From: Rozella allomycis CSF55
Taxonomy: Eukaryota
Assembly (NCBI GenBank): GCA_000442015.1
Contig: KE560919.1
Coordinates: forward strand, 1 to 33,295
Direction: 5' to 3'
DNA: 33,295 bases
The notes under the pieces are model-generated. The model had not been told where the DNA came from. It ran no database searches and saw only the letters and a program-made list of their open reading frames with translations. Shown here piece by piece: positions 3,444 through 22,837 of the stretch (its first letter is position 1; each line of letters opens with the position of its first letter). Position numbers and translations under genes: made by a program.

Positions 3444-4310
3444 TTATTCAACATCATCTAACGCTTCGTACTCTGTCCTCTTCTTGTATAAGTAAAAGTG
3501 CTGAATAGCAAATACCACATCAAATATAAGGCTTAGCATTCCCAGCCCAAATTTTACGGGATGTCCCAATATGCTCGTCCAATCATGTGACATGAATGAA
3601 TCCAAAATTATTTGCGCCGTTGAAAATGTCCCACCTATAAAGTCCTATTTTATCATTGATTGTAATTTTATACCAAAATGATGTTTTCAACCGACCACCC
3701 TTCCGTGCTCTTGCGCTTATAGTTTAGGTACACTTGGGGTAGATATTTCACCACACTAGTAACAAGTTTGAATGCAGATAGAATGTATAAAATAGAAATC
3801 CATGTTATTAATTGAGGGACGGCCAAAGACACTAAAATTGCACTTAAAACTGCGATGATAATCAGAATGGAATGAATGAACCTAGATTCTCCAGATTTAC
3901 TGGTCTTGAATGTAAAACTTTCAAAAAACTTACTTGGTAGTATTTCGACTGGACAAAGGTAATTAATGTTAATGTAAAGGCGTGAACTGAAAACAGCACG
4001 TCAGTCAATCGAACTACAGGATCGCTCCCATTATGGTCTTTGCGATATTCTTCTTTAACTTGTTGGCTAAAAAACATACATATATTAAATATAGCGTAAA
4101 ATCCAAATCCAATCATGTTGGCATACAGAAAATCAAATGATAAACCTTCAGAACTATTTTTCGCATTTGATTCATGTTACCTTTTTCTCTTCCAATTTAA
4201 TATGAGCTGTGGGTAAAAGCTCACAGTCCAACTAGTAAAATAAATCTATTGAACGGAATTGTTAATTGTACCCATCCGAAAATCGTTGAGACAACCGGTA
4301 AAATATCCAT
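3444..4310 (-). CDS. CTNS: Cystinosin / ERS1-like PQ-loop lysosomal-vacuolar cystine transporter (4 introns of 26-29 nt)
   Basis: The spliced product has [71 protein letters not shown] and a C-terminal YEAL tyrosine-type sorting motif. Confidence 0.93.
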
Positions 4311-4392
4311 GTGATTTGGAATTTAGGAAATACTTCCTTAAAATTTTCAAAAGTTTTTAGTAGAGGTAAATTCTAAATAATGTGTTATTGTC

Positions 4393-5027
4393 ATGGCAAT
4401 TCCAATGAAAAAGTCCCCATCCAACAACTTTAGAGAATCAGGATTATTAGGCACGAATAGGACAGATAGGGAGATATCTCTCGAAAGTACCATTGATTAT
4501 CTTCAAAAGCGGCATGAATCTTCACTTGAATTGTTACAACGAGAGATTTCGAAATTGCAAGACCAAAATTCTAGTAATACATTATATTCGACTTTATTGA
4601 TCTAATTTTAAAGGTCTTGAGTTTAGAAGAATCTTCGAAATCCGTGGAAACTAATGAAAAAGTTGTTCACAAGGAGGAAGTGGATGGACTAAGATCAGAA
4701 AATTCAATTTTGTCATCTGAGAATGAAGATTTGAGAAATAGGCTATTGTATTTGGAATCATTAGTTAAAGATTTAAAGAATAAAGTGAATAATGCAATGT
4801 CCTCGGAATCGTATTGGAGCAACAGGAATAACAATAGCAATAACGTAGATTTAAAGTCTGCAAACAATAATTCTTATTTTCCAAATATTCCATTAAAACC
4901 CACAGTTTTTAATACAACAAAGTCGTCAATTGAGAATTTGACATTACCGCCAATTGATGATAAAAGAAACTCAAAAGCTAGATTTTTTGCTAATTTCAAA
5001 GAAAAAGCTGCGAAATTGCTAGAATAG
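4393..5027 (+). CDS. CCDC92/CCDC74-like coiled-coil protein; one intron starting at 4574 (3' end ambiguous: 4599 TG or 4626 AG)
   Basis: SLESTIDYLQKRHESSLELLQREISKLQDQN resembles the CCDC92/74 N-terminal motif (LE..l.fLQ..H...L..L..EI..L...N). The downstream ORF 4617-5027 continues the coiled coil. Confidence 0.65.
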
Positions 5028-5122
5028 AAATAAATCTTTCCGTCAATTTTATCCAATTACTTGCCAATCGCAATATCAAATTTGATTATTTCAAAGCCAC
5101 CTACATACCTGTCAGACCATCA

Positions 5123-7541
5123 ATGAAATTCGCCCATTCACTGCAATTGAATGCCAAACCAGAGTGGTCACAAGAATACATTAATTATTCGTACCTGAAA
5201 AGGATAATCAGTCACATTGAAAAGTTAAAGTAAATAGAATGTAATAGCATTGTAGATTTGAAGTAATGAGGACGAATTTCGCATCAGGGAACGACGAAGA
5301 GCTTCAACTAATTTCTTCTGATGCAGTCGATGCATCTCAAGCAGCGCTGACAGAAGCCAATGAATCGTTTGTGAGCACTTTAGAAAAGGAGTTGGATAAA
5401 GTTTGCAGTTTTTATTCAAAGACCGAAAGAAGATTGTTAAATGAGCTGGAGAATATTACCATGGCTATTAGAGAATTTGAAGGGGTTGAACATGCGACCA
5501 AGCCATCAAGGCAGCCTTCATCTTGGCCTAAATCACCACTTTCTTCACCAACTTTATCATTCAAAAACCGGTTTGATCAAGAAAATGTGGAAAATATATG
5601 GGAAAATTTAAAAGATGAACATGTTTTAAAAGAGAAAGAATCGATGAGAATGAGGCTTTCAGAATTATTTATAGAATTAAATGACTTGAAGGAATATATT
5701 GATACTAATTATTCTGGATTCAAAAAGATCTTGAAAAAGTTTGACAAGTGTACCGAGGGAACTTTAAAGCGAACATTTATGCCAGTTGTAGATGCACACT
5801 TTTCGTTCAAGGATGGTTCAGTTGTTCAAGATGCTATGGATAATTTAGTAAAAATTTATTCTCGTGTTATTTGCCATGAGAATGTGGGTGATGCTTGGAC
5901 AGAATTAAAACAACAATTAAAAGAGCATGTAGCGTTTGAGAGATCAACTGTGTGGAAAGATATGATAGAATTAGAAAGAAAAGCAAAACCTGCGGTAGTG
6001 CTACCAGCGTTTGAAACTCTTCCCGCCAATGTATCATTTTGGCAAAGATACAAGAGTTTGATTCTTTTATGTATTGCGATTATTTTACTTTTAATTCTTT
6101 TGAGAGTGGAAATATTTAAAGATCGCGCCCAAAGGAATTGTTTCGCTCTTTTTATTTTTGTTTCATTTCTATGGTCTGCTGAAGTTATTCCTTTATTTAT
6201 CACCTCATTTTTTGTTCCATTTCTTGCAATTATTTTAAATGTCTTAAAGAACGACAAGGGGGAGACATTGAGTCCTCTTGATGCATCACCAATAGTTTTT
6301 CAATCCATGTTTTCCCAAGTGATTGTTTTACTTTTGGGTGGCTTTTCTATTGCAGCTGCTTTGAGCAAATTTAATATTGCAAAATCTTTAGCAGTTTCTG
6401 TTTTGAGTAAATCAGGCAATAAACCTTCGAATGTTCTTTTGGCCAACATGTTTGTCGCCACTTTCCTTTCAATGTGGATTTCAAATGTCGCTGCTCCAGT
6501 TCTCTGTTTTTCAATCATCCAACCAATTTTAAGAACTCTTCCAAATAATCATCCCTTTTCTAAATGTTTAATTATTGGAATAGCAATGGCTTCTAATGTT
6601 GGTGGGATGGCCTCTCCAATTTCAAGTCCACAGAATGTTTTTGCTTTGGAAAGAATGTCGTTGGCAGGTTCTGCACCTAGTTGGCTTGAATGGTTTTTTG
6701 TTTCTATTCCAATTTGCTTAATTTGTGATTTATTAATTTGGTCTTTTCTTGTGTTCATCTTTAATCCTTCAAAAGGGCTTCCAGAAGTCACTCCAATTCG
6801 TAAAACGGATGATCCAATTTCGAAACAACAAATTCTTATTACTTTATCAACAATTTTAACTATTTTACTTTGGTGTTTAAACCCAATCCTGAAACAATAC
6901 ACCGGAGAAATGGGAACTGTAATTATTCTTCAACTTAGTAAGGTTAGATTGCTATTCTTCCAATTATTATATTCTTTGGCACTGGAATTCTTCATAAAGA
7001 TGATTTCAATTCGTTTCCTTGGACTGGTAAACTTATCCCTCAACGTTTATCAAAGTTGTTATGCTAGCCAGTGGTGGATTGGTACTTGGAAAGGCTGTTA
7101 AGTCATCCGGCCTTTTATCAACAATAGCTGCTGCCATCCAATCTCAAATGGAAGGGCTAGGCCTTTGGATGATTCTTTTAATATTTTGCACTTTAATCTT
7201 GATAGTCACCTCATTTGTTTCACACACAGTTGGCGCCATGGTTATTCTTCCAATTGTTCAAGAAGTTGGTCAATCTCTTCCAAATCCACATCCAAAATTA
7301 TTGGTGCTCGGTGGTGCTTTTATGTGCTCAGGTGCCATGGGGTTGCCAGTCAGGTATTTCTTTCCATTTTCTTTTAAATAGTGGCTTTCCTAATATCACA
7401 GCGATGGCACTAGAAGATCAAACGGGTAAACCATTCCTCAACGCTAAAGACTTTTTAAAAGTTGGAATTCCGTGCTCTTTGATTGCATTCGCTTGTATTA
7501 TATCTTTGGGATATGGCCTAATGTTACTCATAGGCTTCTAA
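5123..7541 (+). CDS. PHO91: SPX-domain SLC13-type low-affinity phosphate transporter (Pho87/Pho90/Pho91 family); introns 5230-5255, 6919-6947 and two more near 7027 and 7354
   Basis: SPX start MKFAHSLQLNAKPEWSQEYINYSYLKR, NYSGFKKILKKFDK, ERSTVWKDMI, SMWISNVAAPVLC, ASNVGGMASPISSPQN, MGLPVSGFPN. The paralogue cannot be resolved. Confidence 0.93.
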
Positions 7542-7574
7542 ATTAATTTTAGAATAAACATAAACTAATTTATT

Positions 7575-8027
7575 TTAAAGTCTTCTTTGCTTCTTTGGTT
7601 TACATCCGTTCATTGGAACGGGTGTACAATCCATCATTTCTACAATCTCAAACGGCCTGCTTCTAAATTGATTAAAAAACGGGACTCTCAGTGTATTATA
7701 TCCTCTTAAATGAATCTTTAACTTGGCAATATCCAATTTCTTTGCTCTCTGTTCAAATTCATCAAGTAACGCTAGCAAGCATTTAGTAGACAGTTTCTTG
7801 GAATTTTTAAACCCAACTTTACCAGCTGAGAGACAAAAGAATGTTTTTTCTGGGTTAATACCATCAATCAAAGTAAGAAATACATTATTCATCGCAAAAC
7901 ACACCATTAATCGATGATAATTACCAACATCACGTTTAGGAAAGTTTGGCACATAACTCCAACATGCTTGACCTGTTAAATATCGTATGGAAGGCAATGC
8001 CTTCTGATAGAGTACCAAATTGGTCAT
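7575..8027 (-). CDS. MRPS11: Mitochondrial ribosomal protein uS11m (start likely 8027; ORF open to 8081)
   Basis: S11 motifs NNVFLTL, SAGKVGFKNSKK and C-terminal DCTPVPMNGCKPKKQRRL; intronless. Confidence 0.88.
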   Translation of the reverse strand: MTNLVLYQKALPSIRYLTGQACWSYVPNFPKRDVGNYHRLMVCFAMNNVFLTLIDGINPEKTFFCLSAGKVGFKNSKKLSTKCLLALLDEFEQRAKKLDIAKLKIHLRGYNTLRVPFFNQFRSRPFEIVEMMDCTPVPMNGCKPKKQRRL

Positions 8028-8114
8028 GGACGAAATTTCGAAATCGTGTATGGTGGAAATTGAGATATGTAAATGTGACATAATGATAAAAGTTTAAATT
8101 CTTTATTCCTTCAA

Positions 8115-9206
8115 TTAAATCATGCTAAAGGCAATGACAATGCCCAAAACCACGGAAAATAGATAAGTATAATTTGTGGAAGCGTCAGATGTTGGCGCCT
8201 TATTATCTTGTGAAGATGGAACTTGTTGAACTTGTCCTTGACCTGGTTGGTTGACTGTACTAGTGACTGTTGGGCTAGCAATGCCTTTACATTGACCTAC
8301 AGTCATGAGAGAGTATCCATTTGCCGTCATTTGAGGGAGAAAGTTGTTCTCGAAAAGATCAACACCACCTTGAAAAGTGTCATGTTCCAACGTAATTAAG
8401 CCATTTGAAAAACTTCCTCCAATTGCTGTTTGAAATCCTGAAACGACACCTGCGACTAGATTAGTATTACCATCTGTAGTATAATCATTTGTATCAAGAT
8501 TCCACATAACTGGTCTCAATCCCATGGCCGCTGCAATAGCTCTTACTCTATCGTCCAAGTCTCCTTGAGGTGGACGAAACAAAGTAGGTTTAATACCAAG
8601 AATCTTTTGAAAGGCCTGTACAGTAAATCCGAGTTCTGCAACAACTTGATCATTCGTCAAAGAAGTAAGCGGATGGTGAGACCATGAATGAACACCAAAT
8701 TCCATGCCTGCATTGTATAAATCTCTAACAATTTGTGCGTTCTGAACCATGTGAGCACCGACCAAGAAGAAGGTTGCCTTGAGGTTTTTACTTACAAGAT
8801 ATTGCAACAAAGTTGGAGTAAATGTTGTAGGTCCATCATCAAATGTCAATCCCAGTGTCTTTGCACCTTTGCAGTCACGAATATCGTCTGGTCTCCAGCA
8901 TTTTCCTGAAGGATCTGCTGTTGGTCCGCATGTCCACCAACAGGTACCAGTGTCACCGAGGGAAGCATCCACGTTAGCGGGACATTGTTGAGTAGAGGCT
9001 GCAGAGTTTGGTTTAATGGCAAGTTTGGAATCACCGGCAGGTAAAGGGAATGCGCTGAGAATCTGTGGAGTGGGTGCTGCAGTCACTGTATACCCTAGCC
9101 CGTCAGTGGATCCCGCAACTGATGGCCATTCTGAAGCAACATATGTGAAAGAAGGTAATGCCGCTAGCGTAAAGGAGCTAGCTGATAGCAGTAGCAACAG
9201 TTTCAT
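8115..9206 (-). CDS. Secreted, probably GPI-anchored chitin/polysaccharide deacetylase (CE4, NodB domain)
   Basis: Signal peptide, Cys-rich CWWTC region, TFDDGP, HSWSHH, RPPQG, DTNDY and LEHD motifs, Ser/Thr/Gln linker and hydrophobic C-terminal tail. Confidence 0.93.
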   Translation of the reverse strand: MKLLLLLSASSFTLAALPSFTYVASEWPSVAGSTDGLGYTVTAAPTPQILSAFPLPAGDSKLAIKPNSAASTQQCPANVDASLGDTGTCWWTCGPTADPSGKCWRPDDIRDCKGAKTLGLTFDDGPTTFTPTLLQYLVSKNLKATFFLVGAHMVQNAQIVRDLYNAGMEFGVHSWSHHPLTSLTNDQVVAELGFTVQAFQKILGIKPTLFRPPQGDLDDRVRAIAAAMGLRPVMWNLDTNDYTTDGNTNLVAGVVSGFQTAIGGSFSNGLITLEHDTFQGGVDLFENNFLPQMTANGYSLMTVGQCKGIASPTVTSTVNQPGQGQVQQVPSSQDNKAPTSDASTNYTYLFSVVLGIVIAFSMI

Positions 9207-9322
9207 CGGAGATAATACATTCGCGGGGAATTTCTTGCTAGAAATATGTGCTATTTTTAGATCTTTTTGTCAAAATAAAAAGTGTAACATGTGTATTTTA
9301 GTACGTAAATTGTAATTTATAG

Positions 9323-9647
9323 TTATTCATCCTTGGTTTCCTTTTTCTCTACTTTCGTTGCCCATTTCAATGGATGGCTTCTCAAGTACGGCCAAGAAGG
9401 CACAGCGGCCTATATAAGTTCAATTATAATAAACTACTATCAAAACTAGAATAAATGTGATTCCAAATATAGCCGCAGTGTATTCAATTTTCCCTGTGTA
9501 TAACCCCACCAACGCGCCTACCACAGCAGCTGGTGGCAGTGGCAGTTTAATAATCTTTTCCGCCAACACCTGTCCATGAAAATCCTATTTAACAATATAA
9601 TAACCTCATACAGCAGGCGTATCATTGATTATATCCAGCACAGACAT
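9323..9647 (-). CDS. SPC1: Signal peptidase complex subunit 1 (SPC1/SPCS1); introns 9585-9611 and 9410-9437; absent from the ORF track
   Basis: Spliced: MSVLDIINDTPA-DFHGQVLAEKII...two TM segments...AAVPSWPYLRSHPLKWATKVEKKETKDE. DFxGQxLAE and VPxWPxxxxHPLKW are SPC12-family signatures. Confidence 0.92.
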
Positions 9648-9652
9648 TTCCA

Positions 9653-9658
9653 AAATTT
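9653..9658. promoter_or_regulatory. Palindromic AAATTT element shared by divergent SPC1 and MAP1 (putative initiator)
   Basis: It lies in the 20-bp gap between the two ATGs. The same hexamer sits 4-5 nt upstream of the ATG in four other genes. Confidence 0.55.
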
Positions 9659-9667
9659 CCAAAACAA

Positions 9668-10855
9668 ATGAAAATCTGCCATTTAGAGTCTTGCCAAAAG
9701 GAGGCGAAATTCCAGTGCCCCAAGTGTGTCAAGGCAGAGATCCGGGATATATATTACTGCTCGCAGGACTGTTTCAAGGCGGACTGGCCTGAACACAAGA
9801 AGCGGCATCAGGAAGCGGGCCAGTATAATCCGTGGCCTGGATTTGGGTTTACGGGCACATTGAGGCCGTACCCCACGAGTGCTATGCGAAAGGTGCCTGA
9901 GCATATTAAGCGACCTGATTATGCAGAGACTGGTAAAACTGATTGATGGGAATGAAAAAGGGATTCCGGTGAGTGAGCAGGCTGAGCGTGGTAGCTATGC
10001 TATCAGAGTGCTGGACAAGGAGGAGATTGAAAAGATGAAGGTTGTTTGCAGACTGTCGCGGGAGGTGTTGGATATTGCTGGAGCGGCTGTTAAAGTTGGA
10101 GTGACAACCGATGAGATTGACAGGATAGTGCATGAGGAATGTATCAAGAGAAATGCGTATCCATCTCCTTTGAATTATTATAATTTTCCCAAATCATGTT
10201 GCACGTAAGAATAGATGTTAGTTATGAAAGATCTGTGAATGAAGTTATTTGCCATGGAATACCAGATATGAGACCGTTGGAGGATGGAGATATTGTGAAT
10301 ATTGACATTTCATTGTATTTTGATGGATATCATGGGGATGTGAATGAAACATATTTTGTTGGGAATGTTGATGAAAAGAGTCAAAAATTGGTTAGAGTTA
10401 CAAAGGAGTGTTTAGACTTGGCCATACAAATGGGTAAAGTAATTAAAAAGGAATGAAAAGTTAAACCAGGAGTAGCGTACAAGGAGTTGGGCAATGTAAT
10501 TCAGAAACATGCACAGAAGCATGGATTGTCTGTTGTTAGAAGTTATTGTGGACATGGAATTAACAAGTAATGAAAGAGTGGAATGATTATAGTTTGTTTC
10601 ATACAACGCCAAACGTACCGCANTAGTTTGTTTCATACAACACCGAATGTACCGCATTATTCGCGCAACAAGGCTGTTGGGATAATGAAGGCTGGACATT
10701 GTTTTACGATTGAGCCTATGATTAATGAAGGACATTGGAAGGAGAAGCATTGGCCAGATAATTGGACAGCAGCGACTATTGATGGGAAGAGATCTGCGCA
10801 ATTTGAACAAACGTTAGTTGTAACAGAGGATGGATATGAAATATTAACTGCATAA
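9668..10855 (+). CDS. MAP1: Methionine aminopeptidase 1 with N-terminal zinc finger (4 introns; apparent break at N 10623 is likely an assembly artefact)
   Basis: [25 protein letters not shown] zinc finger, [53 protein letters not shown]. Confidence 0.96.
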
Positions 10856-10896
10856 AAAGCTTTAAAAAGATTTAAAAAAGTTTTAAAATGTTTATT

Positions 10897-13800
10897 CTAG
10901 TCATCGTCATCTTCAATAGTAATTTTAGCTTTTCTTTTCTGAGATTTCATGATTGGCATTTCATTTTCTTTATCTTCTTCATTAAGTGACTCTTTGGTCA
11001 AATTTAGTTCATTCAATTTTGAATTCTCTGTCAAATTGGAATCATTAAATTCTTGACTTTTAAAAGTTTTCCTTCTCTTTTGTTTTAATTCAAGTAATAA
11101 TTCTTGAATTCTTTCTTGATCAACAATTTGTTCATTCTGATCATCGTTTTGACTAAAGACCATTTCATCAGTAGAATGTTTCTTGTTAGATTTAAAAGTA
11201 CCTTTAACACTCTTTCCACTCTTGTTCTTTTCTTCACTCTCTCTCCCTTCTACCTCACTGTCACCCTCAGCCCTTTCAACTTCTCCTTCATCTCCCTTTT
11301 CACCTTCTCCTTCAACTCCTTCTTTTCTCTTTTGCCTGTTGAGTTTTAATTGTTTTAATTTTTCCAATTTATTTTCCTTTTCAATTTCATGTTTATCTTT
11401 TAGTTGAGAAATGTAATTTTCAAATTCATCATTTTCAGAGTCAGAAGAAGAATAATTTAAATTGCTTAAAGATTGTTGGAATAAAGATTGATCAATTGAA
11501 CTCTTTGAACTCAAAATATAAAATGTTAATGGTTTATCTTCTGGTGGTTGAAATTGCTCAATTAGCGTTGAATTCAATATATCTACAATTTCTTGTGAAT
11601 TGAAATCTTGTGGGATTTTCCACAGTAGAGATTCATCATCTTATTTAAAGTGAATAGAATCTTTACCTTTGATTAAACCAATCAAGTCTAGCAAGAGATG
11701 AAAATATTTATTTGTAAACATTTTAAATTCTTTTTGATTCAAAGGTTTGAAATCTTGAGATTCATTGTTTGACAAGAATGATATCAATAGATTGATATAG
11801 TCAGTTTTATTCTTTTGAATTAAGATTGAAGCCACAATTTTAATCTGATCTATTTTAGAGAATTCAGGTGCCACGTATAGATCAAAAGAAGTATTTTTTT
11901 CATATTGCATTCTTGGATCTTTTCCAAGTGTGATATATTTAACATCATAAGATTGTTTTGGATATAAAATTTCCATAATGAGAATTGGATATTCAGAAAC
12001 TTTTTTCATAAAGATTTTAATAAAATAAGAAATAAATTTAAATAAATCTTTTTCTAATTTCATTTCAATCATTTTAAAAAAAGTTGATAGAATTGAAATC
12101 TTATAAAATACAGGGGTCATATTATGTTTAATTAAAAGTTTATGTAAAATTTTCAAACAAAATTCTTTTTCTTTTTTATCTAATATTTCTTTTCCATACA
12201 AAAGTCTCAAAATATTTAAAATTATTAATTCTTCTCCAAATTCCTAAATTTCAGAATCTAAAAATAGATTTTACAATTTCGAAATTTTCTAAATTTTCAT
12301 TTTTCATTCTTTTCAAAAGTTTCATAAAATTAAAAATCCCTCTCAAAATAATAGACAAGTATTGAACTGAAAATTTCATTCCATCTTTTAAAATTAAATA
12401 CAAAATTCTAAATACATTTCCCTCCAAAATTATATTCATCAATTCTTCTTCATTAATCAACTTTATCATCTCTGTCAAACTCTTCACTAAAATTTCAACT
12501 TGTTTCCACTTCTTTTCTTCAAACGATGATGCCAATTCATTCGCCAATGTTAAAATAAAACTTCTATTCAAAACACACTGAATCATTTCAGGCATCAAAT
12601 AAGGAGCATTAGTAGTAGTAGGGGGATTATCAACTACTTTATCACTCTCTTTATCAATTATATTCACTTTGAGCCCTTCACTGTTATTATCATCTTTATT
12701 ATTATGGTTTATATTTTCATCAACCATATCCACTCTATCTATATTCTCTTTATCTTCCACTCTATCATCTTTATTCTCTCCATTGTCCACTCTATCTTTA
12801 TTCTCCACTCTATCTTTAATTCTCTTAGTGGCTTCAACTTCATTGGATGATTCGTGATAGAATTTACAACAGAATGAAATAATATCATAAACTTTCTCAA
12901 CATCATCTTGACTCAAAAGATTATTCGTTTCAATCAATCTATTCGCTTTAGAAATTAATCCATTCATCCCACTTTCAATAAATCTCTTCTAATACCTTAA
13001 CTAAATTTACCTTTTCATAATCTTTTTTGTTATTTTTATTGTTTTAATATCCCCAGTTCTACTTGTATTGCAAAATGATGTCACAAGCTTTCTAGTCCCT
13101 TATCTTCCCACAATCAATCTTCTTTACCTTTAGGAATCGGCATTCTCACTTTCCCTCCACATTTCTTTTCTAAAATTTGTTTTCCATTATCAACCGCAAA
13201 TTCATTCGAATAAAACCTCGTATGTCTTGGCCTCAAATTAACCCTCTTCTCCTTTTGCTTCAATAAACTCAATTTATTAATAATTTCTTCCTTGTAAATC
13301 CCAATCGCACATTTATCTTTAATTATCCCATGAATAATCCCAATCATTATCGTTATCCACTGTGGATACTTTCCTTCATTCATCTCGCCGCAAATACTCA
13401 CAAATATTTCCACAAATCTACTTTGCTCCAACACCTGAATATATTTATCCTTTACATTTCATCTATTCCTCTTACATTAATCTCATCCTTTTGATGCTCA
13501 ATAACCATCAAATTTCTAATCAATGAAAGCACAAGCTGTAACATATTCTTATTCTCCTCATAATTCATCCTTTCTCCACACACTACACCCCCTTACTTGA
13601 ATAGTTTCGCAAAATACATAATCAACCTCTTCCATATCATCACATTACACATCGCTTGCTTATAATTCTGATGAATCTCCACAAAATTCACCCCCTCCTC
13701 CTCTATATTCCACGTCAACGGCACACATATCTCAACTAGTCTCCATTTCCTCATCTCCTTACCAAACAACTGACAATACACATCCTCTGTAGTATTCATC

Positions 13801-14045
13801 AGCATAGGCACCAAATGCTTCTCTATCACATTAAATTTTCCAAGCGTTTCAAACGAAAAATACTCGCGAGAATAATAGTCCTGCTTTAATAATCTCTTCA
13901 TGTCCTTCAAACAGTCCAAACTATTCTCGCCTGGAACAAACACTCCATTGTCTAAAACACCGATGCCAAGCGACAAGTTTAGCAACAGCGAGTGGATGAA
14001 CGGTTTAAGGCGTTCCTGCTTTTCCTCCTTTTCATTTTCATCCAT
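10897..14045 (-). CDS. TOF1: Timeless/Tof1/Swi1 replication-fork protection protein (7 introns of 26-31 nt)
   Basis: N-terminal FVPGENSLDCLKDMKRLLK, LGKFNVIEKHLVPML, LVEICVPLTW, LVLSLIRNLMVI and RHTRF match the Timeless N-terminal domain. ORF fragments join in frame through GT-AG mini-introns. Acidic/basic low-complexity C-terminus. Confidence 0.85.
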
Positions 14046-14224
14046 TTGCGAAATTTCAATGTTTAGGGTAAAGAAATGGCAAATCACCGTAAAATATGCA
14101 GTTAAAAATTCAACGAGATTTATTTCAATTCAATTATATCTCATTAATGATATCATAACGCCATTCCTATTGACACGNACGCCATTCCGATTGACACGAA
14201 AGTTTCTGATCAGTAAATTTCCGA

Positions 14225-15178
14225 ATGAAGTTCCAATCCATTTCATCTCTATTTCTTCTCTTTCTATTCCATCTTTCCCCTTCTTTTTGCTCTTACGGTG
14301 ACAACCAAGAAAGTTTTCGCAGATGCACCCAGTCTTGCCTAAACACTCTATGTCCAGAAAATGAACAATCAAAATCACATCTCAGTTTCTCTCTCAGATT
14401 GCTGCAATGGACATGTCTGGATGACTGCAAGTACCGATGCATGATCAATCAAACTGAAAACGACCTCAAACAAAATAACAGAATACACCAGTATTTTGGG
14501 AAATGGCCGTTTTATCGCATCTTTGGAATGCAGGAATTTGCATCCGTTCTATTCTCTATTGGAAATCTAATCGTGCATTACAGAGGATTCATCATTCTTC
14601 GTTCGTCAATGTCGAATCGTTACTACATGAAACCTTTCTATTTAGTAAACTCTCTTCTTAACATGAACTGCTGGGTTTGGTCAACCATCTTTCATGCTCG
14701 AGATACACCAAGAACTGAACGAATGGACTATTTTTCGGCTGTGTTGATTATAGTATATGGCGTATACTACATGCTACTCAGAATGCTTCAAGCAGATACT
14801 CGCAAAAAGCAGCTATTGTTTGGAATACCATGCTTTGTATATTACATTTTTCATATTTTGTACTGCACGAGAAATCCTAGATTTGACTACTCTTACAATG
14901 TCATCTCTGGCACTATATTCGCAGTTACATTCCAGCTTACATATTTTATTTGGGGATTGCGAAACTTGGACAAACCTTATGCTAAATTGGCAATAGCATT
15001 TACATTTTTGGGAACTTTGGTCATGGGCTTTGAAATATTTGATTTTCCGCCTTATAATTTACTAATTGACGCTCATTCGCTATGGCATCTTTCAACGATT
15101 CCTCTTGTGTCGCTTTGGTATCGATTTTTATTGCAAGATGGAAGATATGAGGCTTTAAGGAGAAAGCAGCTGTTATAA
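14225..15178 (+). CDS. PER1: Per1/PGAP3 GPI lipid-remodelling protein
   Basis: Signal peptide, SYGD, WTCLDDCKYRCM, QYFGKWPFYRIFGMQEFASVLFS, WSTIFHARD, DFPP..LIDAHSLWH; intronless. Confidence 0.95.
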   Translation: MKFQSISSLFLLFLFHLSPSFCSYGDNQESFRRCTQSCLNTLCPENEQSKSHLSFSLRLLQWTCLDDCKYRCMINQTENDLKQNNRIHQYFGKWPFYRIFGMQEFASVLFSIGNLIVHYRGFIILRSSMSNRYYMKPFYLVNSLLNMNCWVWSTIFHARDTPRTERMDYFSAVLIIVYGVYYMLLRMLQADTRKKQLLFGIPCFVYYIFHILYCTRNPRFDYSYNVISGTIFAVTFQLTYFIWGLRNLDKPYAKLAIAFTFLGTLVMGFEIFDFPPYNLLIDAHSLWHLSTIPLVSLWYRFLLQDGRYEALRRKQLL

Positions 15179-15198
15179 CGCAACAAAAATAAATTTAT

Positions 15199-16256
15199 TT
15201 ATTGGCATGAATGAAATAAAATGTCTCCATTGTGAGAGACTGAAACTGTCTTTGATCCCTGCTCATTAAACGCGACTCCCCAAACTTGATTCGTGTGGTC
15301 TTCAATAACATGAAGGCATTGGCGGTTGACTAGATCCCAAACTCTTATTTTCCTGTCACTCGAAGCTGAGGCTAAATAATTTAAGGTTGGATTCACATCT
15401 ATACTAAACACTGATCCAGTATGTCCACTTAACATCGCCAAGGTATTTCCATGCACCCTTCCTTCCAATTAACGTGATTAAACTTACGCGTCATAAAAGT
15501 GAATCTTTTTGTTATCGCCTGAGGAAATGATTGTCTTTGAATCATTTGTGAATTTCACACATCTCACTGTAGATCCATGACCTCGTTTGTAATATTTATT
15601 TTACTTACCTGAAAATGAATTTAACAATTTTCCGGAAGCGACATCGATCACAAATACATGTCCTGTTTCAGACCCTACACCCAAATACATTCCATTTGGA
15701 CTCTTTATCAAATCAATCAAACCTATTTACAAATTTCATCGCGGTGATAAACTTTCCTTTAGTTTCAATAACAGCTTCTGAATTTTGAAGCTCATTTGAC
15801 CAAAATGTTATTTTGCCTTGATAATTGCCAGTTGCAACAAGTTGTCCATTTGGAGAAATTGCAGCACACCATGCTTCGACTGGCCCAAGTTCGGCAGTCT
15901 TGATAGGGAGCAAATTCTGAGTATCCCATAATTTCAATTGGTGATCCAAAGATGTAGATACAGCCACTAAGCTGAAATCCTTTCAAACACATTTACAAGT
16001 AGAACTGATTGCACAATCAAGACTTGATGTTCCCAGATTGTGTCCCTGTAAAGCACTAAGCATCTCATAATTCTCACCATTCCTATGTTAAAGTTTCTCT
16101 TATTTTACCAGCACATTATTTGGCCATCAACAGATCCAGTCAAAATTCTATTTGATTTGTAATTCCAGCAGCAGTTCCATATCGAGTCTTTGTGTGCGTT
16201 TTTTATCGTATGCAAAGAAGCAAACTAGAGACAGATTTACGGCTCAAAATTACCAT
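15199..16256 (-). CDS. SKI8: WD40 protein Ski8/WDR61/Rec14 (6 introns; first coding exon is ATG alone)
   Basis: Spliced start M-FASLHTIKNAHKDSIWNCCW, LTGSVDG, GHNLG, STSLD, ELGPVEAW, GKF, LSGHTGSVFSI, SASSDRKIRVWD, HTNQVWGVAF match WDR61. Confidence 0.88.
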
Positions 16257-16332
16257 AATTCTATGGGCTTGTAATACAGAAATTTACGAATTGCAGCTAT
16301 GGTAAAGTCATATAGCATAAATTAAAAAGAAC

Positions 16333-16796
16333 ATGTTTACTGACTTTTCCTTGGCTCCAAATAGAAATGAAACTAAAGTAGAGATAAATGGGCCATACGG
16401 TGTACATGACACTCTTCGCCAAGGCTTTAAATCGGTCAGAAAAGAGTTTACAGCTGGTCATCCACTTGAGCCCGTGCTATCATCTGTAAGAATATTTTTA
16501 ATTACTAGATTAGAAATTGGAGACTGAAAACAAGATCAAATTATCGATGATGAGGAATAACTATGGACTTCACATGCCATTAAGACATATAATGGAACAA
16601 AAGATTGTTGGAATGCCAAAAAGGTTACCAGTTTTAAAGTCTAGTTCAATTGCAATGGATACTCTTTTAGGAAAGGATGAAACAATTGACGTTGAAGACT
16701 TTATGGGAGGTAAGATTATTGGGGTCTTTTATACAAGATGTTGAATTTCAACTTGCGTCCCACAATGTTCATGAAGTTATGGATTCAATGTTTTAA
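16333..16796 (+). CDS. UMP1: Proteasome maturation factor Ump1/POMP (2 introns)
   Basis: GVHDTLRQG, HPLE, RNNYGLHMPLR..ME, DTLLGKDETIDVEDF, terminal VHEVMDSMF. Confidence 0.93.
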
Positions 16797-16830
16797 ATAA
16801 AAATACAATGTGATTTTAAAAATATTGATT

Positions 16831-18903
16831 TTAACATTTATTGTTTGCATGATCGATGAATGCATAAAGGACAGAGTGTTCACTAGAAAAATGCCCTTCT
16901 GGATTAATTTTCAGGTATAGCTTTTTCTTCCATCCTTTTGGGAGATGGTGTCTTAATTTGGCAACCATTTTAGATGGTTCATAATAACCAACTCTTGAAT
17001 CTTTTAAGCCGGCTGTAAAAATAACGTTTGGAAAGTGTGAAGAAGGCAATTTATTATACGGAGAAAATCTTAAAAATTCATTGAAAATATCTTGATTATG
17101 TGGATTACCCCATTCTTCATATTCATAGATCGTCCAGGGCGTATTAATATCAATCATGTCACCTACTACATCAAGAAAAGGAACCTGAAGGATTGCAGTA
17201 TTAAATAAGTGAGGATATTGAAATAGCATTGCGCCGATAACCAAACCCCCTGCACTACGCCCTTGAATTACAATTTGTTCAGGCAAAGCCCAATTATTTG
17301 TTGAAAAATATTTCAAGACTGTCGCAAAATCATGAAAAGAGTTTTGTTTGTTTAAAAATTTACCATCCAAGTACCAATTATAGCCAAGGTCAGCGTCACC
17401 TCGAACATGAGCTATTATTATTGTGAAACCTTTATCAAGCAAGGGATACCAATTAATTTTGAATGAAGTTTCAATCATTCCACCATAAGCACCGTAAGCA
17501 TAAGCTAATAATGGTTTCCTGTACGGCTGGGATTTTCCTTTGTAAATAATAGAGACTGGTATTGAATTAATGAAAATCTTTTTTGATGAATAATCTTTAA
17601 AATTTATTAAAGAATTCGTTTCTTCTTCAACCAGTTCAAGACTTTGTTTAACAAAATGAATTCTAAAGATTTTGGATGGTTCATTAAATGAAGAATAAAT
17701 GAATGAAAAATAGTTATCATTAAAATTTCTATAAACTCTTTCTTCTTCGTCTTCAATTGCGTAAGGCATTAATGAATAAGGAAAAACTTTTGGTTTAAAA
17801 GGCATTACAACTTTAAATTCATCATTAGATTCATTTGGAAGCAAAAAGAGAAAATTCTTGGAACCTTTTTCCCAAAACCAAATCACAATCGCTTTATTGA
17901 AACTTTCAATTCTGGTCAAATATTTATTCGAGTGTTTTAATATGACTTTTGCTTTTTGTTTGTGAAAATCTTCAATTCCATTTAAAAGCAAAAGTTCGTT
18001 ATTTGGATGTTTTTCATCACCATAAAGTATTAAAAATTTATTGTTCCAATGTTCAACGTTAAAGCGAACATTTCTCTCCCTTTGACGAAATCTGAGTAGC
18101 CGGTCATTCCCATCTAAAATAATCACCTCTTTTGTTATTTGCCCAACAATTTCAATTGTTAGATACTTTCTATCATTTGTAGAACCAACTGCAACTGTCA
18201 AACTTTCATCTTCTTCATAATACAATAGTTCTTTTCTTTGCATTTCAACATCAATTTTAAAAATCTTTCGCGGTAAGCCCTTTTCATCCACAGAAGATGC
18301 AATAAGAAAATTATTTGCATCCCATCGTGCACTGTAATAAAATGATATTTCAGCGTCAATCAATTTGTAATTCTTAGAAATCATATCCACTACGCACAGA
18401 CGAAACCTCTCACTTCCATCCTCATCATAAGCAAATGCTAAATATCTTGAATCTAGGCTTATTTCAAAAAAGCCTACATTAAAGTATGACATATATTTTG
18501 AAAACAATGATAAATTAAATATCTCCTCAATGATATCCTCTTTCCTTCTATAAAACGCATTTTCGCCAGAAGAATTATGATTCTCGTAATATGTCCATCC
18601 ATCAATAACAACAGTTCTATGAATATAGACATGATGATCCTTTAACTTTGACAATTCAGCACGATAACTTTCAATTATGGATTCGCACGGTTTAATAAAC
18701 TTATCTTTTGTATAATTAGATTCTTCCGTTATGTACTTCATAGTTCTGCTATCGTTAAATTTCAACCATTCATAGTAATCAACAATTTTGTGTCCTTCAA
18801 ACAAAATCTCCGTTCTTATTCTCTCAGCTTTAGGCATTGATATGGTATAACAACTTTCCAGTAGGTAAAATATTAGAATAATTTGCACTAGCATTGCGAA
18901 CAT
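16831..18903 (-). CDS. Oligopeptidase B (peptidase S9A, PtrB-like) with apparent N-terminal signal peptide; intronless (ORF open to 18981)
   Basis: DYYEWL, DEDGSERF, YAYGAYG, AHVRG, GRSAGG nucleophile, VPFLDV, EYEEWGNP, DSRV and GH catalytic motifs. Hydrophobic MFAMLVQIILIFYLLESCYT start. Confidence 0.92.
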   Translation of the reverse strand: MFAMLVQIILIFYLLESCYTISMPKAERIRTEILFEGHKIVDYYEWLKFNDSRTMKYITEESNYTKDKFIKPCESIIESYRAELSKLKDHHVYIHRTVVIDGWTYYENHNSSGENAFYRRKEDIIEEIFNLSLFSKYMSYFNVGFFEISLDSRYLAFAYDEDGSERFRLCVVDMISKNYKLIDAEISFYYSARWDANNFLIASSVDEKGLPRKIFKIDVEMQRKELLYYEEDESLTVAVGSTNDRKYLTIEIVGQITKEVIILDGNDRLLRFRQRERNVRFNVEHWNNKFLILYGDEKHPNNELLLLNGIEDFHKQKAKVILKHSNKYLTRIESFNKAIVIWFWEKGSKNFLFLLPNESNDEFKVVMPFKPKVFPYSLMPYAIEDEEERVYRNFNDNYFSFIYSSFNEPSKIFRIHFVKQSLELVEEETNSLINFKDYSSKKIFINSIPVSIIYKGKSQPYRKPLLAYAYGAYGGMIETSFKINWYPLLDKGFTIIIAHVRGDADLGYNWYLDGKFLNKQNSFHDFATVLKYFSTNNWALPEQIVIQGRSAGGLVIGAMLFQYPHLFNTAILQVPFLDVVGDMIDINTPWTIYEYEEWGNPHNQDIFNEFLRFSPYNKLPSSHFPNVIFTAGLKDSRVGYYEPSKMVAKLRHHLPKGWKKKLYLKINPEGHFSSEHSVLYAFIDHANNKC

Positions 18904-19249
18904 AAAGATAATTTTCCTTTTTTGTAAATGCATGAAAAAAATTCCGTGCACATGAAAAGGAAAAATTATTTCATAATTCAATGATTCAATGACATGGAAA
19001 TCTATTTTCTATTCACTTCACAAATAACATAACTAGTCATGCTAAATGGAATAAATAATGAAATTGGAAATGAACAATTCTTTACGAAATGTGGCGGCCT
19101 TGATTTCCTTGCATGCAACCACATCATTTCAGTTTACTAATTACGTTATTGTTTTAACAATAAGGTATATTTTTGAGTCATCTGAGCACATACATTTACG
19201 TTATGCCTGATGTGCGTATTTCTAAATCTAGATTAGATTTCAATATTTC

Positions 19250-20555
19250 ATGTTACGAAACTTTGATAGATTTTGCCTTGCTCTGCATGGAATTTTATCC
19301 ATTCTTATCATTTTAAAGGTTTCATACACCGAAATAGATTATTCCACTTATCTGCAACAAGCCAAACTCTTCTGGGAAGGTGAACGAAACTATTCCAAAA
19401 TCCTTGGTGATTCAGGACCTTGTGTATATCCTGCTGTACATTTATATATCTTTTCTGTTATATACTTCATAGGTTCTTTCCTGGAAGAACAATACAGATT
19501 GTTATTCGGGCAATTGCTATGGATGATTATTTCAATTGCAACAGTCAAAATAGTTTTTTCTATTTACAATTCTTTATACAAGTAGAGTATGTCAATTCCA
19601 TTTATAAGGAATACGTCAAAGTTAGACGCCGCGCTTAAACTAATGCTGATATTGTCTAAGAGAACTCATTCTATTTACGTATTGCGAATGTTTAATGATC
19701 CTATAGCAATGATTTTCTTTTGGCAAAGCGTCCAAGCACTATTGGAAAATAATTTAATTGTGTCTGCTTTATCTTTAAGGTATCTGGTACTTTTTAAAGA
19801 GAAAGCCTTGCCTTAGGTGTTAAGATGAATATTCTTTTATCTTTTCCGGGAATATTCGTAGCATTATATGTTACAAAAGGGTTTAGAAAAACATTTTTTT
19901 ACTTTACAATCGTTGGAGCTTTTCAGTTACTAGTCGCGATCCCATTTCTTGCAACATTTCCTTTGGAATACTCTTCAAATGCTTTTAATTTCAAACGAAA
20001 GTAATTTTTGTATGAATTCTTGAGAGATTTCTTTACGAATGGACTGTTAACTGGAAATTCCTTCCAGAAAATGTGTTTCTCAGCCCTTCCTTCTCAATGT
20101 TACTTCTGATTTTACATTTATTAGTTTTGATCATTTTTATTTCTCTATTCTTATTGTAAGACCATTTCCTTGTGTGAATAGTAAAAAGAAAGGTGTGCAT
20201 CCATGGAAATTGATGAGATTGAGTGCTGTAGGACTATCCAAGAAAGACACACTTGATTTGATTTTAGTCTCAACTTTCATAGGTATTTTATTTTCTAGAA
20301 CACTGCATTATCAATTTTATTCTTGGTATTTTACAATGTTACCGTTCCTTCTACGAGACTATTACCTGTAAGAAACTTTACTGAAATCAAATTAGCTGGT
20401 GTTTATACCCAATTATTGAATGGGTATGGAATGTTTATCCCACTTCAGAAATATCTTCTTTTGTCTTGTTATGCTCACATTTAATGATCGTGGTAGTTCA
20501 ATTTATGAAGGTATTGAGAAATCACTACCCAAAGAAAAACAATAAATTGCATTGA
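19250..20555 (+). CDS. ALG3: Dol-P-Man:Man5GlcNAc2-PP-Dol alpha-1,3-mannosyltransferase (5 introns)
   Basis: KVSYTEIDY, GDSGPCVYPA, SKRTHSIYVLRMFND, SLALGVKMN, FLYEWTVNWKF, FSRTLHYQFYSWY, EWVWNVYP. Confidence 0.95.
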
Positions 20556-20610
20556 ATTTTTTTTGAAAAGGCATTAAAATCCATCAAAGAATTTAATGAT
20601 CAAGGACTAT

Positions 20611-20889
20611 TCATTTATTTTTGTCATCGTCGATAGCGTCTAGAAAGTCATCAGAAATATAGTCCAGATCAAATAGCACTTCTGGAGTTTGGCCATCAGG
20701 AAATGCGACACGGAAATCTTCTTCGGATGCGTGAACTCCAGGAAATGATTGTACTATATCAGCCTCCACTGCTTGACCTGGCACTTCGCTAGTTGTTTTC
20801 AAGTCAGCATTGTTGGTATCAGCAGGATCAGCATATGCAATATTTTGAAGAATAATTAAGCATATAATCGTTTTGTAGAGTAAATGCAT
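20611..20889 (-). CDS. Small acidic secreted protein of unknown function (92 aa)
   Basis: Intact ORF filling the gap between genes. Signal peptide ending AYA|DP; Asp/Glu-rich mature part; no recognisable family. Confidence 0.65.
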   Translation of the reverse strand: MHLLYKTIICLIILQNIAYADPADTNNADLKTTSEVPGQAVEADIVQSFPGVHASEEDFRVAFPDGQTPEVLFDLDYISDDFLDAIDDDKNK

Positions 20890-21042
20890 TGATTAAGGAG
20901 TTTAGGATTCGGAGTATTTTATCGACCGCCAATAACATTTGTTTTACTTAAGAGATGACAATGCAGTGGAATTTCACTTCTCGGGAACATATTTTCCAAG
21001 TCTAAATTCATAATTGAAATACAAAATACAATTTTATTGACG

Positions 21043-21937
21043 CTAAATTTGAATCATTTCCGGTACGGGCCAAACAACGTCTATGAGTAAGGCAAGAATA
21101 TTTTACCGCCGTCAAATTGAATGGGATCATCAGAATTCATGAAATTCATGTATTCCTGAATACTTAATAGATTTGAAGTTTGAACAAAAGCCTTTACAGT
21201 TTCCTTTTTCGGCACAAGAGTGCTGTATCTCCCCATCAAGTCATCCAATGCTGGCTTTAAATCTGCTTTAATTAAATTTGAGAGCTGTGATCCTAGATTT
21301 ACCGATGAATTTGTAATGGCTGTAACCTATTCGGAAATAGAGTCATGGAATACATGTTGAGGTATATTATCAAATGTTAGTTCTGATATATCAGACGATA
21401 GTGCGGAACTTTCTTCGGATTCTGCTTGAAGACTCCTGATAGCCCAGAAAGAAAAAGATGGCTTTCCAATCTAAATTGTTTCATAAAATAGATAATACAT
21501 CCTCTAAAAAGGTCAAAACTTTAGTATCCGTAAATAGTGTATGATCAGGCCTATTTAAATCATTTAAGACTTTTTGTATAGGTTTATAAGTAGCCTCTTG
21601 AAGATTCAATGATCATTTACTTCAATTAAATGGAAGTATATCTCTTTGTACAATAATAAGATGCCAGTTATTGAGTCCTCATTCTCTGTGTGTTGTGGGG
21701 GAAATAGTTTTTCATAGTAATTGTTATAATCATCTTTTGACTCATTTTGTGTCCTTAATGCACCAACAACAATTAACCTATAATAAAATGGCTGCTTAAA
21801 TATATTGATTAAACTGGAGTTACTCGTGAATTCACTTCTTTTCTTGTAATGTCGAGGTAATTAGTAGGTTCGATATCTTCATTTTGATGGTTATCATCGT
21901 CAATTATATCATCATTGTGATTGGATGTGGCCAGCAT
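21043..21937 (-). CDS. TEX47: TEX47/DYBLUP/MOT7-like BLUF-related ciliary protein; five introns (21795-21823, 21595-21620, 21471-21498 and two more downstream)
   Basis: Spliced: ...TNYLDITRKEVNSRQPFYYRLIVVGAL...YYEKLF...SITGILLLYKEIYFHLIEATYKPIQKVLNDL...TKVLTFLEDIGKPSFSFWAIRSL...LLSIQEYMNF...DGDVVWPVPEMIQI. ITG(I/L)LL.Y....H.IE and terminal VWP.P are characteristic of TEX47 as recalled. Confidence 0.78.
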
Positions 21938-22075
21938 GGATAAAAAAAAAAAAAATAGTCCTATTCGCGAGATACCGACTATGATGGGCAGCGTCACTTC
22001 TTTTATCGTGCACATATGCTCCAATAATTAATGCAGTATGATAGAACGCTGAATAAAATATGACAAGCCACTAAC

Positions 22076-22722
22076 ATGTCCAAAAGGACAAGAGCAGAAT
22101 GCTATAGAAACACCTTGAACGGTCTAGACGCTGTAATTTAACCTATATTTATATAAAAGTATACTAGACATAAAAAGTTTATCAACGACTACATTATGTA
22201 CTACAAAAAGGGAGAAACTGAGACGAAACGAAAAGGACGAAGTGAGACATCGATTATAAAAGAGCACTACAGGTATACTTTGCAGAATAATTTTATTTTC
22301 GATTTATACCAGATGCAGATGATTTAGACGAGAGCGTTTGGGAGAAAAGGCTGGCGAAAAAGTATTATGATCAGTTGTACAAGGAATATTGTTTGGCAAA
22401 TTTGTCTTTATACAAGGAAGGAAAGATTGCATTGAGGTGGAGAACTGAAGAAGAAGTGTTTCAAGGAAAAGGTCAGTTTGAGTGTGGCAATTTAGAGTGT
22501 GATGAAGTTGAGGGGTTAACGAGTTGGGAAGTTAATTTTGCGTATGTGGAAGCAAAAGTTAAGAAAAATGCACTTGTGAAATTAAGACTTTGTGATATAT
22601 GTTCGCGAAAACTAAATTACAAAAAGGAAATGAAGAGGGCCTCAATAAATAAGGACGCGCGTTATCATGATCATGATAATCATGATGAAGATGATGATGT
22701 TATAAATAAACTACTTGAATAA
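22076..22722 (+). CDS. FRA10AC1: FRA10AC1 spliceosome-associated protein; intron 22133-22159 and a second intron starting at 22273
   Basis: LDAYTRHKKFINDY, WEKRLAKKYYDQLYKEYCLANLS.YK, ALRWRTEEEV..GKGQFECGN, WEVNFAYVE..KKNALVKLRLC..CS.KLNY. Confidence 0.94.
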
Positions 22723-22837
22723 TACTTTTTAAAGTTTATGATTCGCCATGCGTTCTAATGCGTTTATATGAAAGGTACAAGCTATTAAAACCTCATTATT
22801 GACAATCTAAAATCCAAGTCATAATCATGGAAAGAAT

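Follow-up and report, generated by a model that had tools for sequence, protein, structure and literature searches.

A probable 26-nt GT-TG intron and an excess of G-ending non-AG acceptors in Rozella allomycis

The CCDC92/CCDC74-like coiled-coil gene of Rozella allomycis described here is very likely best read with a 26-nt GT-TG intron at 4574-4599. The reading is preferred because of the heptad pattern that it continues, its choice by a gene model blind to the acceptor dinucleotide, its usual length and the A at position 23 from the donor (A23), with heptad spacing standing in place of an alignment to homologues. The GT donor matches the genome consensus and the terminal AG is absent, while the stretch carries the commonest intron features of this genome, namely a GTA donor, T at position 21 (T21), A23 and a length of 26 nt.

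The window, i.e., the whole stretch of 33,295 nucleotides that was analyzed, is one contig of the R. allomycis assembly (11.86 Mb, 1059 contigs); it is AT-rich and gene-dense, and uses the standard code. Four sequencing runs, all of DNA and showing no intron joints, were compared with it, and splicing is inferred from sequence throughout. A self-trained two-strand gene model was applied to 820,295 bases, or 7% of the genome (the window and parts of three contigs). Restricted to GT-AG introns, the model returned 1572 introns, among which 1422 (about 90% over the 820 kb) were 26–31 nt long, 20 were shorter and 2 were of 53 nt; none was under 19 nt, with a model floor of 18. This bears out an earlier remark that 26 nt is a very common length here. 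Donors were GTA in 95% of cases, the introns of this set had no pyrimidine tract, and a model-free count also had an AG peak at 26–28 nt from the donor. Within the window, 61 of 62 modelled introns measured 26–32 nt. The lone exception, of 60 nt in a methionine aminopeptidase gene, was rejected as an artefact, since it overlaps an N within an assembly duplication (10567-10643) where the DNA runs skip 34 bases. A second duplication around a single N lies at 14158-14178 (21 bases skipped), and comparable ones also disturb the Prp8 model. Heterozygosity is dense and in blocks across 4200-22800 (e.g., 5236-5308, 5580-5670, and 8604-8694), where contigs come in pairs in X1 and X2.

The coiled-coil gene and its candidate acceptors

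The features of the gene, all on the + strand, are as follows.

4393..4573, +: exon 1 of the gene (CCDC92/CCDC74-like, coiled-coil), made up of 60 codons and one further base (PF14916 match, Atlas, gene model)
4574..4599, +: proposed GT-TG intron, 26 nt, phase 1, donor GTAATA (choice of the blind model, best score, heptad)
4594..4596, +: T21 and A23 of the intron (genome-wide donor-anchored signal), 4596 being the probable branch adenosine
4598..4599, +: proposed TG acceptor, holding the only G within intron positions 26–31
4600..5027, +: proposed exon 2, in which the coiled coil goes on and a low-complexity tail follows (the product is 202 aa long if the TG is used)
4612..4621, +: two out-of-frame AGs, ending at 4613 and 4621, both of which a 53- or 56-nt intron must skip
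4625..4629, +: rival in-frame AG acceptors for introns of 53 and 56 nt, at a cost of 9–10 coiled-coil residues

Exon 1 matched positions 6–37 of the 57 in PF14916 (CCDC92) at 4477-4572 (E 2.5e-4, 21.3 bits), and the match ended exactly at donor 4574. The exon alone scored 21–22 bits, below the cut-off of 28.3 bits, and PF14916 clusters came top for it in the Atlas (0.95, 10/10 hits, 208/256 features). The frame of exon 2 is open for 141 codons; scanned alone and in pieces, this exon had no family match. A word-index search of longer proteins, a full HMMER scan and metagenome contigs gave 0 homologues of CCDC92/74, a search of the PDB gave chance matches only, and neither the Prp18 exon nor any of three translations from the window had an exact copy in the protein collection searched. 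The gene lies head to head with one on the – strand at 4310 that we take to be cystinosin-like (82 bases between the start codons), and an SPX-domain transporter starts 96 bases past its stop.

The preliminary description had all its coordinates right, among them those of the GTAATA donor and of the first AG behind it (4613), and its premature stops were recovered, with splicing to 4613 (40 nt) giving 73 aa and to 4621 (48 nt) 61 aa; the unspliced product has 70 aa. The in-frame G-ending options from donor 4574, which scores above 37% of canonical donors in the gene model, give introns of 17 nt (CG), 26 nt (TG), 41 nt (GG) and 53 and 56 nt (AG). The model blind to the acceptor dinucleotide picked 4574-4599 unprompted, and under a neutral penalty TG 4599 scored 6.05, AG 4626 4.82 and AG 4629 4.39, a small lead of 1.2 log units over 4626. 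As had been proposed, excision to the TG extends the heptad pattern: the heptad positions after Ile-Leu-Asn (3-4 hydrophobic spacing) become Leu-Val-Leu with 4599 and Glu-Ser-Thr with 4626, and only the TG form among those of allowed length continues the heptad. A 17-nt GT-CG form keeps the hydrophobic spacing, but was rejected because no modelled intron is that short. The 41-nt GT-GG form was also set aside, being long and non-AG at once, as was a TG-AG tandem of the vertebrate type, for which the first AG is out of frame, 14 nt beyond the TG, and the first one in frame is 27 nt beyond it.

The canonical option noticed earlier, a 53-nt intron ending at AG 4626, is indeed in frame, and a further in-frame AG, not mentioned then, follows at 4629 (56 nt). 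Splicing to either would involve no unusual chemistry, their scores come near that of the TG form, and N-free GTA..AG introns of 41–62 nt do exist (14/1596 calls). Nevertheless, such an intron would skip two AGs, one of them in a strong context, and break the heptad, and its length makes it the outlier in the window that it had been said to be. AG calls of 33–70 nt carry A23 in only 13 of 33 cases, and many of the long calls lie on Ns or repeats. An origin by doubling is impossible at 4574, where the second half has no GT start, unlike in the two clean cases of 56–60 nt given below. A long canonical intron is considered unlikely here, and the 26-nt GT-TG form is retained.

Candidate G-ending non-AG acceptors beyond the coiled-coil gene

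In a blind test, the model could close introns of at most 40 nt at any non-AG dinucleotide, under one flat penalty and with no dinucleotide preference. It made 52 non-AG and 1544 AG calls, and all non-AG calls were 26–29 nt long. G-ending dinucleotides made up 29 of the 52 (TG 20, CG 5, GG 4) against a background of 9.3% (p 5e-17), and 18/33 and 36/78 under two other penalties. As a planted control, 260 real AGs were replaced by background dinucleotides, 22 of them G-ending: 149 were recovered as non-AG, 41 rerouted and 70 lost. Since only 11 of the 149 recovered were G-ending, the method is not biased to G, and it recovers about 57%. The G-ending class thus amounts to about 2% of unit-length introns as called (29/1458), and perhaps to about 3% in truth. 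A frame control, from which 3 junctions with an N were dropped, covered 49 N-free junctions; TG, CG or GG stood at 26–31 in frame in 33 of them, while the two remaining frames had 15 and 11. The remaining 23 of the 52 non-AG calls ended in a base other than G, and a G-ending site in frame, 3 nt further along, followed in only 4 of them. A model-free count of TG, CG and GG at 26–31 behind strong donors had no clear peak (109 sites). Two G-ending non-AG introns, one GG and one TG, were called together in a YEATS-domain gene, at G000:C861:498306-498333 and 498750-498777 (+).

The companion case named in the preliminary description, in FRA10AC1, was borne out.

22076..22722, +: FRA10AC1 gene, three exons (PF09725 homologues, gene model)
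22133..22159, +: first intron, ordinary 27-nt GT-AG (gene model)
22273..22301, +: proposed 29-nt GT-CG intron, the second non-AG case, chosen blind and carrying T21 and A23 (22295)

Against a profile of 120 homologues, the GT-CG form scored 279.1 bits and the best GT-AG form 245.3 bits. No tiny-intron relative was seen among 52 metagenome FRA10AC1 loci. FRA10AC1 is a late spliceosome protein, and reliance of its own transcript on a CG acceptor would make feedback on splicing fidelity possible.

Protein families gave a further test of the junctions, for which 24 of the 27 G-ending calls outside the window were scanned (two with short exons and one at a locus border were dropped). Seventeen were uninformative, and seven had one family on both sides. 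Four of these seven (ATG4 protease, DUF846, cytidine deaminase and M18 aminopeptidase) joined with an offset of zero, while the joins in FHA, CK2 beta and HMG-CoA lyase were off by one, 4 and 6 positions, respectively. In-frame AG alternatives at these junctions lost 4–26 residues or were lacking within 150 nt.

These joins also bear on the reading in which the coiled-coil gene is mostly unproductive or regulated, with retention or splicing to 4613 leading to products of 70–73 aa or to decay, and with the TG merely leaky. Such ends are minor and cryptic in yeast in the published account (Roy et al., 2023, PMC10711555), and TG, CG and GG do not compete with AG in Rozella. The long open frame of exon 2 speaks against this reading, as does the same pattern, with exact joins, in conserved enzymes that need productive splicing. 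It is judged improbable, somewhat more so than a long canonical intron.

AG rarely lies within 24–31 nt of the donor of G-ending introns (2/33). Conversely, TG, CG or GG upstream of a used AG inside the 26–31 window is not depleted (45/360, or 12.5%, against 14.6%; p 0.32), which rules out a "first G wins" rule and means that G-ending acceptors act only as a fallback, AG winning wherever it lies in that window. The suggestion that any NG serves as acceptor in a way governed by distance stands in so far as a genome-wide G-ending non-AG class exists; the four dinucleotides are unequal, AG being kept in 97–98% of introns.

It was also considered that the assembly may be wrong, or one allele broken, with AG at 4598-4599 in the true or other copy. 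In favour of this, heterozygosity is strong in the window, a contig retains just one allele where a variable site stands alone, and X2, which like X5 covers the site, has two differences somewhere in 4232-5235. Inspected in the DNA reads, base 4598 is T at full depth in X1, where one contig spans 4468-5235 at a depth of 276 with a single other letter, at 4977; X1 is possibly the source data of the assembly, and contigs can drop alleles. Among the 47 N-free non-AG calls, changes fell at –2 in 29 and at –1 in 4, which argues against error, and TG outnumbers GG 20 to 4, though A>G differences exceed A>T differences 40 to 19 in X1. Error or a broken allele therefore appears very improbable.

Other machinery is hardly credible, whether the minor spliceosome or an editing of the U-to-A kind that makes an AG before splicing. 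The minor (U12-type) donor motif is RTATCCTT. The donor GTAATA is of the ordinary GTA type of this genome, GTATCC starts only 2 of 1544 AG calls, and a full-length U6atac-like match is weak, at 26.8 bits under a cut-off of 33 (L168, G000:C12:4427-4533). Three different bases at –2 would be hard for one editing enzyme to produce.

A possible donor-anchored ruler and the second step of splicing

A23 is present in 1041 of 1425 (73%) unit-length AG introns and, by length from 26 to 31 nt, in 86, 73, 65, 74, 57, and 49%, with T21 in about half; it is also seen in a model-free count. G-ending non-AG calls have it in 23 of 29 cases, and those of 27 nt or more in 16 of 21 against a background of 32.7% (p 6e-5). 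T-n-A is the core of branch motifs, and A23 is probably the branch point, set by its distance from the donor. A branch so fixed would explain the hard floor at 26 nt. A23 may, however, be something else, as a tail of 3 nt is shorter than the minimum of 7 nt given for yeast (PMC10711555) and than the 5-nt tail of Stentor (PMC9505925).

Two of 31 calls of 50–100 nt consist of two unit GTA..AG introns placed end to end, with no exon between.

G000:C861:490927-490986, +: doubled intron, 60 nt (30+30)
L092:8786-8841, –: doubled intron, 56 nt (28+28), inside Prp8

The Prp8 protein requires the removal of all 56 bases, and the two cases suggest recursive splicing under a length ruler.

Genes for Prp18, Slu7, Fyv6, U2, U5, U6 and step-2 factors are present in Rozella, as is a gene that we take to be U2AF35-like. 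Loss of Prp18, Slu7 or Fyv6 as the cause is thereby rejected, and inspection by eye revealed no changed recognition motifs in U2 or U6. To our knowledge, the Prp18 loop is invariant more widely. In a comparison with yeast as the only other species, Rozella Prp18 aligned through helix 4 to residue 197, after which every position of 198–204 differs and one residue is inserted, the difference lying inside a single exon (L004:1561-1753); R205 is kept, and Phe replaces Q181. No part of the protein is said to be more conserved than this loop (PMC5873924). Mutation of Q181 in yeast also relaxes fidelity. A loop mutation in Arabidopsis acts in the opposite direction, with less use of a non-canonical intron (PMC5873924).

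A Prp8 exon of this genome is 100% identical to a public R. allomycis protein. Rozella Prp8 keeps W1575, E1576, Q1594, R1604 and W1609. Its differences lie in one exon.

L092:8559-8783, –: Prp8 alpha-finger exon with Ser 1578, Ser 1618 and Ile 1621

Ser replaces A1578 and N1618; of the best 120 homologues, all but Rozella's own public record (119) carry Ala and Asn there. Ile replaces V1621, where 115 of the best 120 have Val. Five of seven differences in near-invariant columns were given no weight, fungi being thinly represented among the homologues. Residues 1618 and 1621 are presumably co-mutated in classic alleles, for which no support was found in the literature.

Taken together, these results are consistent with 4574-4599 being an ordinary mini-intron of the major spliceosome, with T instead of A at –2. 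The donor would be read as GTA and the branch point chosen about 23 nt on, by a ruler needing little beyond T-n-A. The acceptor would have to sit 3–8 nt behind the branch, giving introns of 26–31 nt. An AG in this range would be used; failing one, the spliceosome would dock another G-ending dinucleotide. The last G of this dinucleotide would still find its partner in the opening G of the intron, whereas control of the base at –2, through its pairing to the branch A, would be loosened. In the P complex of yeast, pairs form between the –1 G and the opening G of the intron and between the –2 A and the branch A; the Prp18 loop lies against –3/–4 and, with the Prp8 alpha-finger, clamps the site (bioRxiv 10.1101/212811). 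A kept G with –2 freed is what a weakening of the contact between –2 and the branch A predicts, and a branch distance of 3–8 nt would be expected to strain this contact. The relaxation could come from the very short branch-acceptor distance together with the remodelled Prp18 loop, and perhaps from the changes beside the Prp8 alpha-finger. As a whole, this is likely to be the best explanation. The Prp18 change as the cause of the relaxed ends is a plausible suspicion held at somewhat less than even strength, and the Prp8 change is perhaps a cause.

More broadly, and only tentatively, the second step may have been rebuilt in Rozella, with the branch 23 nt from the donor, the acceptor 3–8 nt behind it and the Prp18 loop remodelled to allow this. 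Some hundreds of introns with TG, CG or GG as the only acceptor would be a by-product, and longer introns could be removed as two serial units. The branch-acceptor distance in this scheme is shorter than in the systems compared below.

Comparison with known systems

G-ending non-AG acceptors are not new: yeast mutants use them cryptically, human genes have them as alternatives, and curated catalogues record rare GT-TG introns, with one or two mentions each (PMC1557818, PMC4528330, PMC11590231). No paper on such acceptors in Rozella was found in a search that missed most subscription journals. New here are the blind test and the controls run on it, an A at position 23 that is fixed relative to the donor, and the difference from yeast in the loop of Prp18. 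If the proposal is true, Rozella has a wild-type spliceosome for which AG is dispensable in whole introns, a natural counterpart of the yeast fidelity mutants. The proposal ties together three matters accessible to experiment in yeast: how short the branch-acceptor distance can be, which part the pair between the –2 A and the branch A plays, and what is proofread by the Prp18 loop. In practice, gene prediction with a compulsory AG will misplace cuts in several percent of Rozella genes, and this genome commonly serves as sister-lineage reference for microsporidia (PMC8476143).

In Saccharomyces cerevisiae lacking Prp18 or its loop 187-211, 3' splice sites of the BG type (TG, CG or GG) are activated, as are ends that lie under 10 nt away from the branch (Roy et al., 2023, PMC10711555). 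The likeness to Rozella lies in the same dinucleotide class, the kept last G and, with A23 as the probable branch point, the short branch-acceptor distance. Exon adenosines may help in both, A standing at exon –2 in 27 of 33 Rozella cases against 807 of 1425, in a model that favours strong donors. The yeast BG sites, as reported, are cryptic, minor, confined to mutants and linked to poly(U), whereas in Rozella the site is apparently the sole usable acceptor, in the wild type, with no pyrimidine tract and with Prp18 present. Prp8 alpha-finger mutants Q1594A, W1575R, E1576V and W1609R relax acceptor positions –2 and –3 (PMC12707134); Rozella Prp8 is unlike these, in that all four residues are kept and the differences lie at 1578, 1618 and 1621.

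Human TG 3' splice sites in U2-type introns (Szafranski et al., 2007, PMC2374985) share with Rozella the major spliceosome and a distance constraint. The human sites, in 36 genes according to that study, always form a TG-AG tandem and are never the sole acceptor, while the Rozella class makes up about 2–3% of introns and has no AG in range. In Stentor coeruleus, introns of 15–16 nt have the branch A at position 10–11, a 5-nt tail and AG ends (PMC9505925). Stentor and Rozella are alike in a fixed intron length and, with A23 as the probable branch point of Rozella, in a branch A at a fixed position with no branch consensus; Rozella differs in placing this A at position 23, in its tail of 3–8 nt and in tolerating non-AG ends.
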